Assembly (NCBI GenBank): GCA_018710845.1 | Contig: DVJB01000065.1 | Location: 7,310-71,309, forward strand | DNA from: Candidatus Onthomonas avicola | Lineage (GTDB): Bacteria > Bacillota > Clostridia > Oscillospirales > Oscillospiraceae | Length of the DNA: 64,000 bases | Direction: 5' to 3' | Shown here: positions 3,579-35,066 of the stretch, in pieces | How the letters are laid out: each line of letters begins with the position of its first letter | How positions within the stretch are numbered: position 1 is the first letter of the stretch | Made by a program: the position numbers and the translations under genes | The notes under the pieces: generated by a model | What the model saw: only the letters and a program-made list of their open reading frames with translations | The model's database searches: none | Told to the model about the DNA's origin: nothing

Positions 3579-4940
3579 TCACCTCTCCACCACCGGCGCG
3601 ATCGCCGCGCTCTCGGCGAGATAGGCGCGCACGGCCGCCACCGTCTCGTCGGGGGAGAGGGTGGACTGCTCGCCGGTGCGCAGGTCCTTGAGGGAGAAGG
3701 TCCCCGCCTCGCGCTCCGAGCCGCCGAGGAAGAGGACGAAGGGGATGCCGAGCTTGGCGGCGTAGGAGATCTTCGCCTTAAACTTCTTCTGCTCGCAGTA
3801 GAGCTGGGTGCGGATGCCGGCCGCACGCAGGCGGGTGGCGGCGGAGATGGCGTAGTCCAGCTCCTCCGGCGACATCGGCAGGACGAGCACGTCCGCCGGG
3901 GCGGTGGGAAGGGCGGGATTGAGCATCTTCTGCTCGTTGAGGACGTAAAACAGCCGGGTCAGCCCGATGGAGATGCCCACGCCGGGGAGGGCCTTGTCGG
4001 TGTAGTACTCCGCCAGGTTGTCATAACGCCCGCCGGAGCAGATCGAACCCACCTCGGGGTGGTCAAGCATGGTAGTCTCATAGACGGTGCCGGTGTAGTA
4101 GTCCAGGCCGCGGGCGATGGTGAGATCGACCGCGAAGTGGCTCTGCGGCACGCCGAAGGCGGCGAGATACCGCGTCACCGTCCGCAGCTCCTCCAGGCCC
4201 TGGTCAAAGAGCACGTCCTTGCCCCGGTACTCCTCCAGGGCGGCGAGGACGGCGTCGTTGCTCCCCTGAATCTGGGTGAAGGCGAGGACGGCGTCCGCCT
4301 GGCCGGCGTCCAGTCCATCCTCCTCCGTCAGCACGGCGCGCACCTTGTCCGGGCCGATCTTCTCCAGCTTGTCCACCGTGCGCATGATCGCCCCCGCCCG
4401 GTCGGACAGGCCGAGCATAGCGTAAAAGCCGTTCAAGATCTTGCGGTTGTTCACCCGGATCTGGAAGCGGTGCAGGCCGAGGGAGGTGAAGGTCTGGTAG
4501 ATGATGGCGGGGATCTCCGCCTCGTTGACGATATCGAGCGTACCGTCCCCGATCACGTCGATGTCCGCCTGATAGAACTCGCGAAACCGGCCCCGCTGCG
4601 CCCGCTCCCCGCGGTAGACCTTGCCGATCTGATAGCGGCGGAAGGGGAAGGAGAGCTGTCCGTAGTTGAGCGCGACGTATTTCGCCAGCGGCACGGTGAG
4701 GTCAAAGCGCAGCGCCAGGTCGCTGTCTCCCTTCTGGAAGCGGTAGATCTGCTTCTCCGTCTCGCCGCCGCCCTTGGCCAGCAGGACCTCCGCCGCCTCG
4801 ACGGCGGGGGTGTCCAGAGGGGTGAAGCCGTAGAGGGCGTAGGTGCGGCGCAGGGTCTCCATCATCCGCTCCATCTGCTGCTGCGGGGCGGGGAGCAGTT
4901 CCATAAACCCGGAGAGGGTGCGCGGTTTCAGTTTTGCCAT
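3579..4940 (-). CDS. hisS: Histidine--tRNA ligase
   Basis: LRFDLTVP, YRGERAQRGRFREFYQADID, RGLDYYTG, GGRYDNL. Confidence 0.97.
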   Translation of the reverse strand: MAKLKPRTLSGFMELLPAPQQQMERMMETLRRTYALYGFTPLDTPAVEAAEVLLAKGGGETEKQIYRFQKGDSDLALRFDLTVPLAKYVALNYGQLSFPFRRYQIGKVYRGERAQRGRFREFYQADIDVIGDGTLDIVNEAEIPAIIYQTFTSLGLHRFQIRVNNRKILNGFYAMLGLSDRAGAIMRTVDKLEKIGPDKVRAVLTEEDGLDAGQADAVLAFTQIQGSNDAVLAALEEYRGKDVLFDQGLEELRTVTRYLAAFGVPQSHFAVDLTIARGLDYYTGTVYETTMLDHPEVGSICSGGRYDNLAEYYTDKALPGVGISIGLTRLFYVLNEQKMLNPALPTAPADVLVLPMSPEELDYAISAATRLRAAGIRTQLYCEQKKFKAKISYAAKLGIPFVLFLGGSEREAGTFSLKDLRTGEQSTLSPDETVAAVRAYLAESAAIAPVVER

Positions 4941-15057: not shown

Positions 15058-16488
15058 ATGGAAGCATTTACCAACTGGGTCTCCAGTGTCAGCGATTTTG
15101 TCTGGGGGCCGCCGCTGATTGTGCTCATTCTGGCCTGCGGGATCTGGCTGACGATTCGAACCGGGTTGCTGCAGGTCTTTCATCTGGGAAAGGCGTTGCG
15201 CTACATGTTTCAGGATGAGGAGGACGGCGACGGCGAGGTGACCTCCTTCGGCGCGCTGTGCACCGCCCTCTCCGCCACCATCGGCACGGGCAACATTGTC
15301 GGCGTCGCCTCCGCTATCGCCGCGGGTGGTCCCGGCGCGCTGCTCTGGATGGAGGTCGCCGCATTCTTCGGCATGGCGACAAAATACGCCGAGGGATTGC
15401 TGGCCATCAAGTATCGCGAGGTGGACCAGGAGGGCCATGTGCTCGGCGGCCCGTTTTACTATATCGAGAAGGGGATGGGCAAGAACTGGAAGTGGCTGGG
15501 CAAGCTCTTTGCCCTCTTCGGCCTGCTCGCCGGCGCGCTCGGCATCGGCACCATCACCCAGATCAACGGCATCACCTCCGCGGCGGAGACCTTCTTTGAC
15601 CCGCAGCAGGCGCACGTCGCCTTTACGATTGGCTCGGGCGACGAGGCGGTGAACATCACCTGGACTACCATAATCATTGGTCTGGTCGTCACGGTGGGCG
15701 CCGCGCTGGTCATTATCGGCGGCCTGCAGCGGATTGCCAAGGTCTCGGAGATCATTGTCCCCTTTATGGCGGTGCTCTATGTCGCCTGCGGCATCATCAT
15801 TATGATCACCAACGTGACTGAGATCCCCAACGCCCTCTATCAGATCTTCTACGGCGCGTTCAACCCGCAGGCGGTGGCCGGCGGTATTGTCGGCGTAACC
15901 ATTCAGACGGCGATCCGGCAGGGCGTGGCCCGCGGCATCTTCTCCAACGAGGCCGGCCTCGGCTCCGCCCCCATCGCCGCCGCGGCCGCCCGGACGAAGG
16001 AGCCGGTGCGCCAGGGCCTGGTCACCATGACCGGCACCTTTATTGACACCATCGTCGTGTGTACGATGACCGGTCTGTCCATCGTGATCTCCGGCGCGTG
16101 GGACCCGGCGCTGGGGCTGGAGGGATCGCAGATCACCGTCTACGCCTTTCAGAATGCCCTGCCCTTCCCGGCGCAGGTGAGCTCCTTCCTGCTGATGATC
16201 TGCCTGGTGTTCTTCGCCTTCACCACAATTCTCGGCTGGGACTACTACGGCGAGCGCTGCCTGGAGTACCTCTCCAACCGCAACCGGCTGGCGGTGAGGT
16301 GCTATCGCTGGTTCTACATCCTGGCCGTCTTTGTCGGCCCCTACCTCACCGTCTCGGTGGTCTGGGGCATTGCGGACGTGTTCAACGCCCTGATGGCATT
16401 CCCGAATATCATCGCCCTGCTCGCCCTCTCCGGTGTGGTCGCCCGGGAGACAAAAGATTATTTCCGCCGATTCCCCAAAGGAGAATAA
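15058..16488 (+). CDS. Alanine/glycine:cation symporter (AGCS family)
   Basis: ATIGTGNIVGV, GGPGALLW, GGPFYYI, ARGIFSNEAGLGS. Confidence 0.95.
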   Translation: MEAFTNWVSSVSDFVWGPPLIVLILACGIWLTIRTGLLQVFHLGKALRYMFQDEEDGDGEVTSFGALCTALSATIGTGNIVGVASAIAAGGPGALLWMEVAAFFGMATKYAEGLLAIKYREVDQEGHVLGGPFYYIEKGMGKNWKWLGKLFALFGLLAGALGIGTITQINGITSAAETFFDPQQAHVAFTIGSGDEAVNITWTTIIIGLVVTVGAALVIIGGLQRIAKVSEIIVPFMAVLYVACGIIIMITNVTEIPNALYQIFYGAFNPQAVAGGIVGVTIQTAIRQGVARGIFSNEAGLGSAPIAAAAARTKEPVRQGLVTMTGTFIDTIVVCTMTGLSIVISGAWDPALGLEGSQITVYAFQNALPFPAQVSSFLLMICLVFFAFTTILGWDYYGERCLEYLSNRNRLAVRCYRWFYILAVFVGPYLTVSVVWGIADVFNALMAFPNIIALLALSGVVARETKDYFRRFPKGE

Positions 16489-29984: not shown

Positions 29985-31244
29985 ATGCAGAAAGTACCGT
30001 TTGTCACCCTGCCCCAGCTCCGGGAGATTCGGGAGAGCTACCCGACACCCTTCCACATCTACGACGAGGCGGGCATCCGCCGCACCGCCCGCGACGTCAA
30101 CCGCGCCTTTGCCTGGAACCCCGGCTTCAAGGAGTATTTCGCCGTCAAGGCGACCCCGACGCCCGGCATCCTGAAGATCCTCCGCGAGGAGGGCTGCGGC
30201 GTGGACTGCTCCAGCCTGACCGAGCTGATGATGAGCGACCGCTGTGGCTTTGCCGGTCGGGAGATCATGTTCTCCTCCAACGAGACGCCGGCGGAGGAAT
30301 ATGTCCTGGCGGCCAAGTTGGGCGCGACCATCAACCTGGACGACATCACCCATGTGGACTTCCTGGAGCGCACCCTGGGCTATATCCCGGAGCGCATCTC
30401 CTGCCGGTATAACCCCGGCGGGGTCTTCCAGCTCGGCGAGAGCAAGGAGGGCTTCCAGGTGATGGACAACCCCGGCGAGGCGAAGTACGGCATGACCCGC
30501 TCCCAGCTCTTTGAGGCCTACCGGATGCTCAAGGCCAAGGGGGCCAAGGAGTTCGGCATTCACGCCTTCCTCGCCTCCAACACCCTCTCCAACGACTACT
30601 ATCCCGCCCTGGCCGGGCAGCTCTTCGAGCTGGCGGTGGACCTGCAGCGGGAGACCGGCTGCCACATCGCCTTTATCAACCTCTCCGGCGGCGTCGGCGT
30701 GGACTACCGCCCGGAGCAGCCGGCCAACGACATCTTTGCCATCGGTGAGGGGGTGCGCCGCGCCTATGAGCGGGTGCTCGTGCCCGCCGGGATGGGAGAC
30801 GTGGCGATCTACACCGAGATGGGCCGCTTTATGCTCGCCCCGCACGGCCACCTGGTCACCACCGTCCTGCACGAGAAGCACACCTACAAGGAGTATATCG
30901 GCGTGGACGCCTGCGCGGCCAACCTGATGCGCCCGGCGATGTACGGGGCCTATCACCATATCACCGTCATGGGCAAGGAGGACCGGCCCTGCGACCACAA
31001 GTATGACGTGGTCGGCTCCCTGTGTGAGAACAATGACAAGTTTGCCGTCGACCGGATGCTCCCGAAGATCGACATCGGGGACATTCTGGTGCTCCACGAT
31101 ACCGGCGCGCACGGCTTCTCCATGGGCTACAACTACAACGGCCGCCTGCGCTCGGCAGAGCTGCTGCTGCGCGAGGACGGCTCGGTGGAGCTGATGCGCC
31201 GCGCGGAGACCCCGGAGGACTACTTCGCCACCCTGGTCTGGTAA
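29985..31244 (+). CDS. lysA: Diaminopimelate decarboxylase
   Basis: YFAVKATP PLP lysine, INLSGGVG, EMGRFM, VVGSLCENND, TGAHGFSMGYNYNGR. Confidence 0.95.
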   Translation: MQKVPFVTLPQLREIRESYPTPFHIYDEAGIRRTARDVNRAFAWNPGFKEYFAVKATPTPGILKILREEGCGVDCSSLTELMMSDRCGFAGREIMFSSNETPAEEYVLAAKLGATINLDDITHVDFLERTLGYIPERISCRYNPGGVFQLGESKEGFQVMDNPGEAKYGMTRSQLFEAYRMLKAKGAKEFGIHAFLASNTLSNDYYPALAGQLFELAVDLQRETGCHIAFINLSGGVGVDYRPEQPANDIFAIGEGVRRAYERVLVPAGMGDVAIYTEMGRFMLAPHGHLVTTVLHEKHTYKEYIGVDACAANLMRPAMYGAYHHITVMGKEDRPCDHKYDVVGSLCENNDKFAVDRMLPKIDIGDILVLHDTGAHGFSMGYNYNGRLRSAELLLREDGSVELMRRAETPEDYFATLVW

Positions 31245-31274
31245 TGCCCACGCGATCAAAGATACGTCGATTTT

Positions 31275-31305
31275 CCCCGGAGACATCCGTCTCCGGGGAT
31301 TTTTT
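31275..31305 (+). terminator. Intrinsic terminator of lysA
   Basis: CCCCGGAGAC-ATCC-GTCTCCGGGG followed by ATTTTTT. Confidence 0.85.
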
Positions 31306-31314
31306 GTCCGGAGA

Positions 31315-31393
31315 TATCAAAAGCGGCGACCGGATGGCCGCCGCCTCTGATATGAAAGGAGGAAAAATGAAAAGAGAGAGTTTGCAATCCCTG
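31315..31393 (-). ncRNA. Candidate anti-SD small RNA 1 (csRNA-like)
   Basis: Predicted from promoter at 31400-31427; CU-rich seed CUCUCUCUUUUCAUUUUUCCUCCUUUC; 17-bp hairpin UAUCAGAGGCGGCGGCC-AUCC-GGUCGCCGCUUUUGAUA; ends approximate. Confidence 0.55.
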
Positions 31394-31399
31394 CTTGCA

Positions 31400-31450
31400 A
31401 GAATAGAATACCAGTCAGTTGTTACAAAAGTTTGTGAGAAAATGTTACCA
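31400..31450 (-). promoter_or_regulatory. Promoter of candidate sRNA1: TTGTAA-N16-TATTCT, plus an upstream box 23 bp away
   Basis: Ungapped 41/56 identity with 31578-31633. Confidence 0.6.
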
Positions 31451-31494
31451 AACTATAACGGCAAAACTTTTTTCTTTCTCCGCGAAAGGCGGGA

Positions 31495-31569
31495 AATGGG
31501 AAAACGGCAGCCGGGGTGGAGCTGCCGTTCCCAACATTGGAGGATAGAATGAAAAGAAGCTGCTGTCTC
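31495..31569 (-). ncRNA. Candidate anti-SD small RNA 2 (csRNA-like)
   Basis: Predicted from promoter at 31576-31603; seed CUUCUUUUCAUUCUAUCCUCC; hairpin AACGGCAGC-UCCACCCCG-GCUGCCGUU followed by UUCCCAUUU; ends approximate. Confidence 0.55.
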
Positions 31570-31575
31570 TTGCTG

Positions 31576-31626
31576 ATGATAGGATAGCAGGGAGATGTTA
31601 CAAAAGTTAGGGTGGAGATATTACAA
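31576..31626 (-). promoter_or_regulatory. Promoter of candidate sRNA2: TTGTAA-N16-TATCAT, plus an upstream TTTTGTAA box 23 bp away
   Basis: Paralogous to 31400-31450; TTGTAA is the -35 at gap and minD, and TATCAT is the -10 at uvrB, in this same window. Confidence 0.6.
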
Positions 31627-31698
31627 AAGTATGAAAGAGCCGCTGATCCAATCGGCACGATCCGCCGCTTGGCGGATGTCGATTCATTCCGCGGTCCC

Positions 31699-32160
31699 TC
31701 AAATTTCCCCCTCCCGGCGCAGCCCGGCAAAAAAGTTCCGCAGCAGCACCCGGCAATCCGCTGCCAGCACTCCGGAGGTGATCTCCGCGCCGGGGGAAAA
31801 GCCCTCCAGCTCCAGGTGCAGGCGCGAGCCGCAGCAGCCGGCCGCCGGGTCGTCCGCCCCGTAGACCACCCGGCCCAGCCGGGCGTTCCAGATGGCCCCG
31901 GCGCACATCGGACAGGGCTCCAGGGTGACGTAAAGCGTGCAGTCATGCAGCCGCCAGCGCCCCAGCGTCCGGCAGGCGTCGCGGATGGCCTCCACCTCCG
32001 CGTGGGCGGTGGCGTCCCGGTCCGCCTCGCGGCGGTTGCGGCCCCGTCCGACCACCACGCCGTCCCGCACGACGACGCAGCCCACCGGCACGTCGCCCGC
32101 CTCCCCCGCCTCGCGCGCGAGGGCGAGGGCGAGGGACATATATCGCTCGTCTGCCGTCAT
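31699..32160 (-). CDS. tadA: tRNA adenosine(34) deaminase
   Basis: DVPVGCVVV, AHAEVEA, YVTLEPCPMCAGA. Confidence 0.95.
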   Translation of the reverse strand: MTADERYMSLALALAREAGEAGDVPVGCVVVRDGVVVGRGRNRREADRDATAHAEVEAIRDACRTLGRWRLHDCTLYVTLEPCPMCAGAIWNARLGRVVYGADDPAAGCCGSRLHLELEGFSPGAEITSGVLAADCRVLLRNFFAGLRREGEI

Positions 32161-34456: not shown

Positions 34457-34496
34457 TGGTAAAACCTTCCTTTCTCCCTCCGCCGGCCCGCGGGCG

Positions 34497-34525
34497 GAAT
34501 GATTCGCCCGGCCGGGCGCAAACTA
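34497..34525 (+). promoter_or_regulatory. Possible forespore sigma-G/F-type promoter (GAAT-N18-CAAACTA)
   Basis: Resembles sigma-G consensus; inference only. Confidence 0.35.
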
Positions 34526-34577
34526 ACCGCGGGGCGGTCCGGCGCCGTCCCAATGTGGGGACAGAAGGAGGAACCAT

Positions 34578-35066
34578 ATGGAATTTTCAAACGAATGCGC
34601 CCTCTTGCAGGAGATCTACCAGGGCGCGGCGATGGGCAGCGAGTCCATCCGCCTGCTGCTGCCGAAGGTAAAAAACGCGGGCTTCCGCTCCGATTTGCAG
34701 ACGCAGCACCAGCAGTATCTCGACACCGCCTCCCGCGCGGAGGAGGAGCTCAAGCAGCTCGGCCAGTGCCCGCGCGAGCTCACGCGGGACCGCCAAGCGA
34801 TGCTCTGGCTGGGGGTACAGGGCAAGACGCTGCTCAACCAGGAGACCTCGCACCTGGCGCGGATGATGATCGAGGGGAGCAATATGGGCATCGTCACCCT
34901 CACCGGCGTGCTCAACAGCTACGGCGACAGCCGCGACAACCCCGCCCAGAGTCAGACGGAAGCCCAGCTGGCCGATCAGGCGAAGAATCCCGCCGTCGCC
35001 CTGGCCCGGGAGACCATCCAGACCGAGCGGGACAACATCGACCGGCTGAAGGTCTATCTGCAATAA
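34578..35066 (+). CDS. Hypothetical helical (ferritin-like/spore-associated?) protein
   Basis: 162-aa ORF with AAGGAGG RBS; LQEIYQGAAMG...MMIEGSNMGI pattern. Confidence 0.8.
   Translation: MEFSNECALLQEIYQGAAMGSESIRLLLPKVKNAGFRSDLQTQHQQYLDTASRAEEELKQLGQCPRELTRDRQAMLWLGVQGKTLLNQETSHLARMMIEGSNMGIVTLTGVLNSYGDSRDNPAQSQTEAQLADQAKNPAVALARETIQTERDNIDRLKVYLQ

Follow-up and report, generated by a model that had tools for sequence, protein, structure and literature searches.

The gap between the convergent lysA-like and tadA genes of Candidatus Onthomonas avicola appears to hold two tandem small RNA (sRNA) genes, c1 and c2, which belong to a family found throughout the Oscillospiraceae. The material analysed was a stretch of 64,000 nucleotides from contig DVJB01000065.1 of assembly GCA_018710845.1 (here called the window, to which all unlabelled positions refer), and the gap occupies 454 bp of it, from 31245 to 31698. 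We put the probability that the two units are sRNA genes on the minus strand at about 0.85, while the full statement, in which the RNAs also repress translation by pairing with initiation regions, is held with somewhat less confidence but is still judged probable. The argument is one of sequence comparison and draws on a conserved promoter and seed, terminators that co-vary, a constant strand, the lack of a coding frame, the spread of the unit through the family and its position after tadA.

In the model that we favour the two units would be independent genes, each read on the strand of tadA into a non-coding RNA of roughly 75-80 nt. Each would have an activator-type promoter with two TKTAAC boxes and a TAnnnT -10 element, and each RNA would consist of a short 5′ part, a single-stranded CU-rich seed of 25-30 nt and an intrinsic terminator. 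From this arrangement we infer that the units are transcribed under a regulator and act on messenger RNA (mRNA) targets with a repressive outcome.

Anatomy of the two units

A repeat search found a direct repeat of 54 nt (31403-31456 and 31579-31632) which is 76% identical at a spacing of 176, bearing out the claim of an earlier, sequence-only reading that the gap contains two diverged copies offset by about 176 bp and matching at 41 of 56 positions. The same search gave a second repeat pair, the exact 10-mer AATGAAAAGA at 31366-31375 and 31548-31557. Both copies match R1, a covariance model for the entire unit, on the minus strand, namely the proximal unit c2 at 31495-31635, comprising boxes, promoter, RNA and terminator (124.2 bits, E 1e-25), and the distal unit c1 at 31314-31459 (112.8 bits, E 5e-23). 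Unit c2 can be aligned with homologues from relatives. The layout is the same in both copies, with two TTTTGTAAC-like boxes 23 bp apart, a -10 element, a CU-rich seed and a GC-rich hairpin followed by UUUU.

In c2 the first (distal) box, CTTTTGTAAT, lies at 31620-31629 and the second (proximal) box, CTTTTGTAAC, at 31597-31606, which is 23 bp past the first and 10 nt before the -10 hexamer TATCCT (31581-31586). The predicted RNA of about 75 nt runs over 31500-31574, its start being placed from the -10 (±3 nt) and its end from the U run. It carries the seed CUUCUUUUCAUUCUAUCCUCC, an anti-start codon together with an anti-Shine-Dalgarno (anti-SD) tract, at 31539-31559, and an intrinsic terminator formed by the hairpin GGGAACGGCAGC...GCUGCCGUUUUCCC and the U run at 31498-31532. 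The corresponding elements of c1, likewise on the minus strand, are the first box GTTTGGTAAC (31444-31453), the second box CTTTTGTAAC (31421-31430), the -10 hexamer TATTCT (31405-31410), a predicted RNA of about 80 nt (31319-31398), the seed CUUUUCAUUUUUCCUCCUUUC (31354-31374) and the terminator GGCGGCGGCC-AUCC-GGUCGCCGC followed by UUUU (31319-31345).

The two seeds have the core UUUUCAU-N3/4-UCCUCC in common. Its complement is rare: in the 2.39 Mb of the genome the pattern GGAGG-N3-9-ATGAAAAG occurs no more than four times, and two of these occurrences are c1 and c2 read backwards. When folded, the c2 RNA leaves the seed unpaired and forms the terminator hairpin, with a z score of -1.7 against -0.65 for the plus strand; for c1 the values are -3.8 and -0.71, respectively.

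Promoter and candidate regulator

For alignment and for tests of open reading frames (ORFs) and terminators we gathered 96 distinct homologous units from relatives. The TAA core of the first box is invariant in these units, and the -10 follows the family consensus TAnnnT with its T, A and final T near-invariant. The sequence-only reading had placed the -10 at TATCAT/TATTCT, 16 nt past TTGTAA, but this hexamer is not conserved and the conserved TAnnnT sits 5 nt upstream of it. Because of this shift the predicted starts move from 31569 and 31393 to about 31574 and 31398. The boxes and TAnnnT are kept in the 96 units, which come from many genera, as would be expected of a trans-acting sRNA gene that has a promoter of its own. 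In a sigma-70-type scan a promoter-like site of c2 was also picked up on the minus strand.

The TKTAAC boxes are spaced by N17, which corresponds to two helical turns, and the proximal box ends 10 nt before the -10. No proper -35 accompanies the revised -10. The promoter of the CiaR-dependent sRNAs (csRNAs) is defined as TTTAAG-N5-TTTAAG-N10-TATAAT (PMC3091779). Given the missing -35 and a proximal box at the same N10 distance from the -10, we infer that the promoter is activator-dependent; its most likely activator would be a response regulator of the OmpR/PhoB type. The half-site consensus of WalR/VicR, TGTWAH, is compatible with TGTAAC (PMC4168254) but the repeat is N17 rather than N5, so that this resemblance would be only a lead. 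An alternative sigma factor was considered and rejected, as the motif, when inspected, agreed with none of the consensuses considered (extracytoplasmic function, sigma-54, the sporulation sigmas, SigH, SigD and the TcdR type).

Conserved seed and co-varying terminators

The information profile of the 96 units peaks at the TAA cores of the boxes, at the TA...T of the -10 and at the UUUUCAU...CCUCC tract, and the seed is the block of highest information. Boxes, -10 and seed are retained in relatives, whose terminator stems differ. The pattern of a conserved promoter block and seed with unrelated hairpins, first noticed between c1 and c2 in the earlier reading, thus holds across genus, family and order, and the hairpins co-vary. 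In the terminator helix, to which the pairs of c2 belong, paired cells make up 97-99.6% and 55-89 changes are double-sided, as counted on alignments fitted to the model; none of 500 shuffles matches this and the signal collapses when the partner columns are slid.

All 96 units have a strong hairpin (mean -25 kcal/mol, 14 bp), and the median distance from the CAU to its start is 19 nt. The U content after the hairpin exceeds the A content before it in 80% of units, with the reverse in 15%. Compensatory changes in a putative Rho-independent terminator on the same strand as the promoter are a general mark of sRNA genes. The same may be said of a conserved single-stranded seed, which is predicted to be unpaired in the minimum-free-energy folds of all 19 units checked.

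Two types of seed can be told apart. The proximal type, UUUUCAUUCUAUCCUCC, to which c2 belongs, is identical in the proximal copies of many genera, while the distal type is exemplified by UCUUUUCAUUUCAUUGUAUCCUCUUUCC and takes the form UUUUCAUU(C/U)UUCCUCCUUUC in this genus, which is that of c1. Since both types recur across genera, the comparison suggests that the pair is old and that its two members are probably not simply redundant. The description of the RNAs as redundant in the earlier reading therefore needs correction.

Distribution and genomic position

R1 was used to tally the unit at the levels of genus, family and order. Within the genus 33 of 43 genomes match, with one to four copies each. 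Across the family Oscillospiraceae matches were found in 163 of 251 genomes and 93 of 134 genera (122 of the 177 high-quality genomes), and in the order they are sparser (41/301 genomes, in several other families), with up to seven copies per genome. Outside the order but within the class there are a few weak matches, in some of which the seed and terminator are preceded by a promoter of the common TTGACA/TATAAT type. Three loci from other orders of the class (L196, L198 and L199) are of this kind, with the same UUUUCAUUUU(C)CCUCCUUU seed and a terminator but lacking the TKTAAC boxes. The seed design must either predate the box promoter or have arisen more than once.

A pattern scan of public genomes gave many chance matches in AT-rich genomes, and only those confirmed by R1 were kept. 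Named carriers are Flintibacter faecis BX5, Flavonifractor sp. An82 and An92, several Intestinimonas, Pseudoflavonifractor sp. 60, Lawsonibacter and Oscillibacter, together with many uncultured Oscillospiraceae, and the tandem pair is present in most of them. The earlier expectation of an sRNA family in a gut clostridium hence stands as regards the family, whereas its range is not one organism but the Oscillospiraceae as a whole. In a metagenome-assembled genome (MAG) of Lawsonibacter, the sRNA pair has a tandem glycine riboswitch with two aptamers (RF00504) about 1.6 kb away, at 3607-3771 on the minus strand of locus L105.

Among the 96 units, 64 lie after tadA on its strand, 38 of them directly and 26 as the second unit of a pair. 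The remaining copies are found elsewhere, after unrelated genes, with the same upstream block. Several congeners (genomes G004, G007, G021 and G022; loci L015, L016, L019 and L025, at about 1498-1656) have a single extra copy some 10-25 nt past the stop codon of a lipoprotein gene. This lipoprotein has an acidic C-terminal tail and appears to be sugar-binding (LacI/periplasmic-binding type), a label read from the sequence rather than from a family search. No downstream gene is conserved, as it differs among seven related loci.

Predicted mode of action and targets

The seed consensus is 5′-UUUUCAU-N3-7-CCUCC(UUUC)-3′, extended in many copies to CCUCCUUUC(U). It copies the CAU anticodon of the initiator tRNA, and its CCUCC tract corresponds to the anti-SD tail typical of Bacillota 16S ribosomal RNA (rRNA). 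The seed is therefore complementary to an initiation region of the form GGAGG-spacer-AUGAAAA. In the mechanism that seems most likely the RNAs would pair in trans with selected mRNAs across the Shine-Dalgarno (SD) sequence and the start codon, keeping the 30S subunit from binding and so reducing translation. Candidate targets would begin with Met-Lys, and many of them would be lipoproteins or exported proteins.

In order to predict targets, a duplex scan was run over about 2,270 crude gene starts of the same genome. The ranking given here comes from a cleaner scan of initiation regions, an earlier scan having been dominated by GC-rich flanks, and the functional labels were read from the sequences and not from a family search. 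Near the top of the ranking is a 509-residue lipoprotein with a start region, GGAGGAUAGGAAUGAAGAG, that is almost a mirror image of the c2 seed. The other candidates include four more lipoproteins (an amidase, a BMP-type and a further ABC-binding protein, and a serpin) as well as PstA and a Wzz-like kinase. Among the 40 best predicted targets 17.5% and 25% have signal-peptide-like N-termini, compared with 7.9% overall (p = 0.036 and 0.0009), an enrichment which is in line with the earlier suggestion of secreted or lipoprotein targets but is statistically weak and in part expected from MK(K/R) starts.

A number of observations weigh against the model. The search for targets yielded no single strong or conserved one: the best sites in this genome are imperfect, BLAST with the complement of the seed returned matches of only 11-13 nt, and a conservation test of the serpin lipoprotein failed, with orthologues in just two very close relatives. 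Part of the lipoprotein enrichment simply follows from the MK(K/R) start of signal peptides. The 3′ end of the 16S rRNA is absent from this assembly, so the identity of the anti-SD tract rests on knowledge of Bacillota in general; MAGs often have such a gap. Genome scans with weight matrices, built from the box pair alone or together with the -10, revealed no other good box pair, giving only a weak third unit on contig C10 beyond c1 and c2, and thus yielded no lead to the regulator. Finally, the alignments on which covariation was counted lean towards structure, and some terminators have an upstream A tract and could act in both directions.

Weighing of alternative explanations

Of the other explanations the one to which we give most room, although it remains a doubtful one, sees the pair not as an ordinary mRNA-specific regulator but as an inducible imitation of the 30S initiation complex, with CCUCCUUUC standing for the 16S tail and CAU for the anticodon, and with U4 reading a Lys AAA second codon, at a spacing like that of the ribosome. 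If true, an RNA induced by a response regulator would compete with ribosomes for strong GGAGG-N5-AUGAAA(A/G) starts. As this class of start is typical of lipoproteins and exported proteins, envelope and secretion load would be throttled across the Oscillospiraceae, and each of the two seed types would suit a different spacer between SD and AUG. In Bacillus the slot after tadA is that of the gene for the signal recognition particle RNA, and in this reading the shared position could be more than coincidence. The pyrimidine tract might also serve not as an antisense seed but as a decoy or sponge, binding a protein or the ribosome and perhaps titrating a KH- or CsrA-like regulator that recognises CU. 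The proximal-type strand is near-invariant over about 40 nt across genera, including a UCUAU linker that generic SD/AUG pairing would leave unconstrained, and this genome offers no long complementary target, both of which a decoy would explain. We nevertheless think it unlikely, since the most conserved blocks are exactly CAU with U4 and CCUCC at ribosome-like spacing, as antisense pairing predicts and as the csRNAs show (PMC3091779), and a seed can also be frozen by the constraint of many targets.

A further proposal is that the RNAs are real but cut from a long 3′ untranslated region of tadA, the TTTTGTAAC boxes and TAnnnT then being RNA or processing signals. The 64 of 96 units that follow the tadA stop on its strand would suit this, as would a hairpin after tadA that has no U run (31660-31677) and the extra copies in relatives that also lie close behind a gene stop. 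However, the TA...T positions are among the most conserved and stand at a fixed 10 nt from the proximal box, which is the geometry of the CiaR-activated csRNAs; the same upstream block is found in units behind unrelated genes; and the second unit comes after a full terminator and hence needs a start of its own. We consider the processing route improbable. Units that acted as 5′ leaders, riboswitches or attenuators were rejected, as the genes downstream vary among the seven related loci and each unit ends in a full terminator; here what lies downstream is the tail of the convergent lysA.

Two further readings, both of which we regard as very remote, dispense with the sRNA genes as such. In one the plus strand would be functional, encoding two small ORFs with ribosome-binding sites (RBSs), perhaps type I toxins, with the minus-strand RNAs as antisense antitoxins. 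The plus strand does have perfect GGAGGA-N4/5-ATG sites, and the first ORF (31367-31552), which is followed by the second, MKRSCCLLLMIG, from 31550, is open for 61 codons in AT-rich DNA. Across the 96 units, however, the opposite-strand ORF has 2, 3, 5, 7-28 or >30 codons with nothing conserved beyond MK(R/K), and in close relatives (L062 and L063) indels of 1 nt between the ATG and the promoter region break the frame. Moreover the products are not hydrophobic, there is no conserved plus-strand promoter (a single match lies in a non-conserved stretch), and the U runs of the hairpins are on the minus strand, contrary to a plus-strand reading. A type I toxin-antitoxin system or a peptide was accordingly rejected, the opposite-strand ORFs being unconserved and frame-shifted among relatives. 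In the other reading there would be no RNA gene but a DNA-level element, made of tandem protein-binding boxes and the terminators of convergent genes, or a decayed mobile repeat. This would account for multiple copies per genome, up to seven, and for a site between convergent genes, a place in which terminators would be present in any case. Against it are the lack of terminal inverted repeats and target duplications, the stability of the position after tadA across more than 90 genera, the conserved seed between promoter and hairpin, the co-varying stems, and the separate terminator that lysA has of its own.

The 61-codon ORF deserves mention in its own right as a trap for gene callers, as it has a perfect RBS, runs antisense through c1 and overlaps the second ATG at an ATGA, yet no relative conserves it.

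Flanking genes and other sRNA-like units in the genome

The flanking genes have the identities claimed for them in the earlier reading. A TadA-type deaminase gene ends with its stop codon at 31699-31701 on the minus strand, and a gene for an ornithine/diaminopimelate/arginine decarboxylase, lysA-like, ends at 31242-31244 on the plus strand. The same reading described the gap as AT-rich, which it is only relative to a genome of 63% GC. A terminator scan placed the lysA terminator at 31274-31299 on the plus strand; it bounds the sRNA genes on the left and is not part of them. The hairpin at 31660-31677 (minus strand, ATCCGCC-AAGC-GGCGGAT) lies 22 nt past the tadA stop. As it has no U run, tadA perhaps lacks an intrinsic terminator of its own and may be read through into the first sRNA unit.

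Two other units of similar appearance are present in the genome. A third, diverged unit on contig C10 (about 15750-15906, minus strand, equivalent to 1468-1640 on the minus strand of locus L002) has a TATTCT -10, a G-free tract CUCUCUCUUUUCUCUUUUUCUCUCUC with neither CAU nor CCUCC, and a 17-bp GC hairpin. Its R1 score is low, at 19.8 bits (E 0.009), and it has different boxes upstream (CGTTCA). A fourth CU-rich unit on contig C42 (about 34470-34661, minus strand) has the -10 region GGTATGATATC, the tract AACCUCCCUCUCUUUUCUUCUUUCUUUUG and the terminator CAGCGCAUCGG-GCGA-CCGAUGCGCUG followed by the U-rich tail UAUCUUUUU. Because the CGTTCA-type upstream repeats of the C42 unit resemble those of the C10 unit, the two suggest a second sRNA family.

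Comparison with known sRNA families

In Rfam 15 no family reached the gathering threshold, whether in the whole window or at 10 related loci. When the cut-off was relaxed to E ≤ 10 over 31200-31750, only chance matches driven by terminators appeared (NsiR1, anti-hemB on the lysA terminator and similar), and the csRNA family (RF02379) was not among them. Searches of the literature brought up no account of sRNAs from these genera, nor of post-transcriptional regulators of Oscillospiraceae. The earlier view that this is not a described family is thus upheld by Rfam, and the covariance model across relatives, a check that had been proposed with it, found the unit family-wide with its promoter and seed conserved.

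The LhrC1-5 RNAs of Listeria monocytogenes are multicopy, partly tandem sRNAs under the two-component system LisRK, and their CU-rich motifs pair with the RBSs of lipoprotein and surface-protein mRNAs. They differ from the present units in having repeated UCCC motifs in loops and single strands in place of one CAU and CCUCC tract. In addition the present units have no Rfam match, and their promoter and taxon are other than those of LhrC.

The csRNAs of Streptococcus (RF02379; Marx et al. 2010, PMC3091779) are alike in several respects. They occur as sibling copies in a genome, some in tandem, and are short RNAs with an intrinsic terminator and an unpaired region that holds an anti-SD tract and CAU, and their promoters have a direct hexamer repeat, the proximal one 10 nt before the -10, with no -35. 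The csRNA layout places the unpaired region between two stem-loops; here CAU and CCUCC are unpaired and the terminator stem is present, whereas a clear 5′ stem-loop is missing, the 5′ stem being weak and without covariation. There is no similarity to the csRNAs in sequence or by covariance model. The boxes are TKTAAC-N17-TKTAAC instead of TTTAAG-N5-TTTAAG, sharing only the N10 to the -10, and the present units come from another class, the Clostridia (Oscillospiraceae), with a conserved position after tadA. The likeness to csRNAs proposed in the sequence-only reading may therefore hold by analogy for function and for promoter geometry (repeat, N10, -10; PMC3091779), but does not extend to membership.

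Our best reading is a new sibling family of trans-acting sRNAs that would work in the manner of the csRNAs or LhrC but are members of neither. It would be a new family for Rfam, built on a principle that is already established. The Oscillospiraceae are abundant and little-studied gut anaerobes, and the family is found in about two thirds of their genomes and genera. Its conserved position, a promoter motif with which to hunt for the regulator and a seed with which to look for targets provide handles in cultured Flavonifractor, Intestinimonas and Flintibacter. If our reading is correct, the csRNA design of a repeat-box promoter, an anti-SD and anti-AUG strand and sibling copies recurs outside Streptococcus with unrelated sequence.

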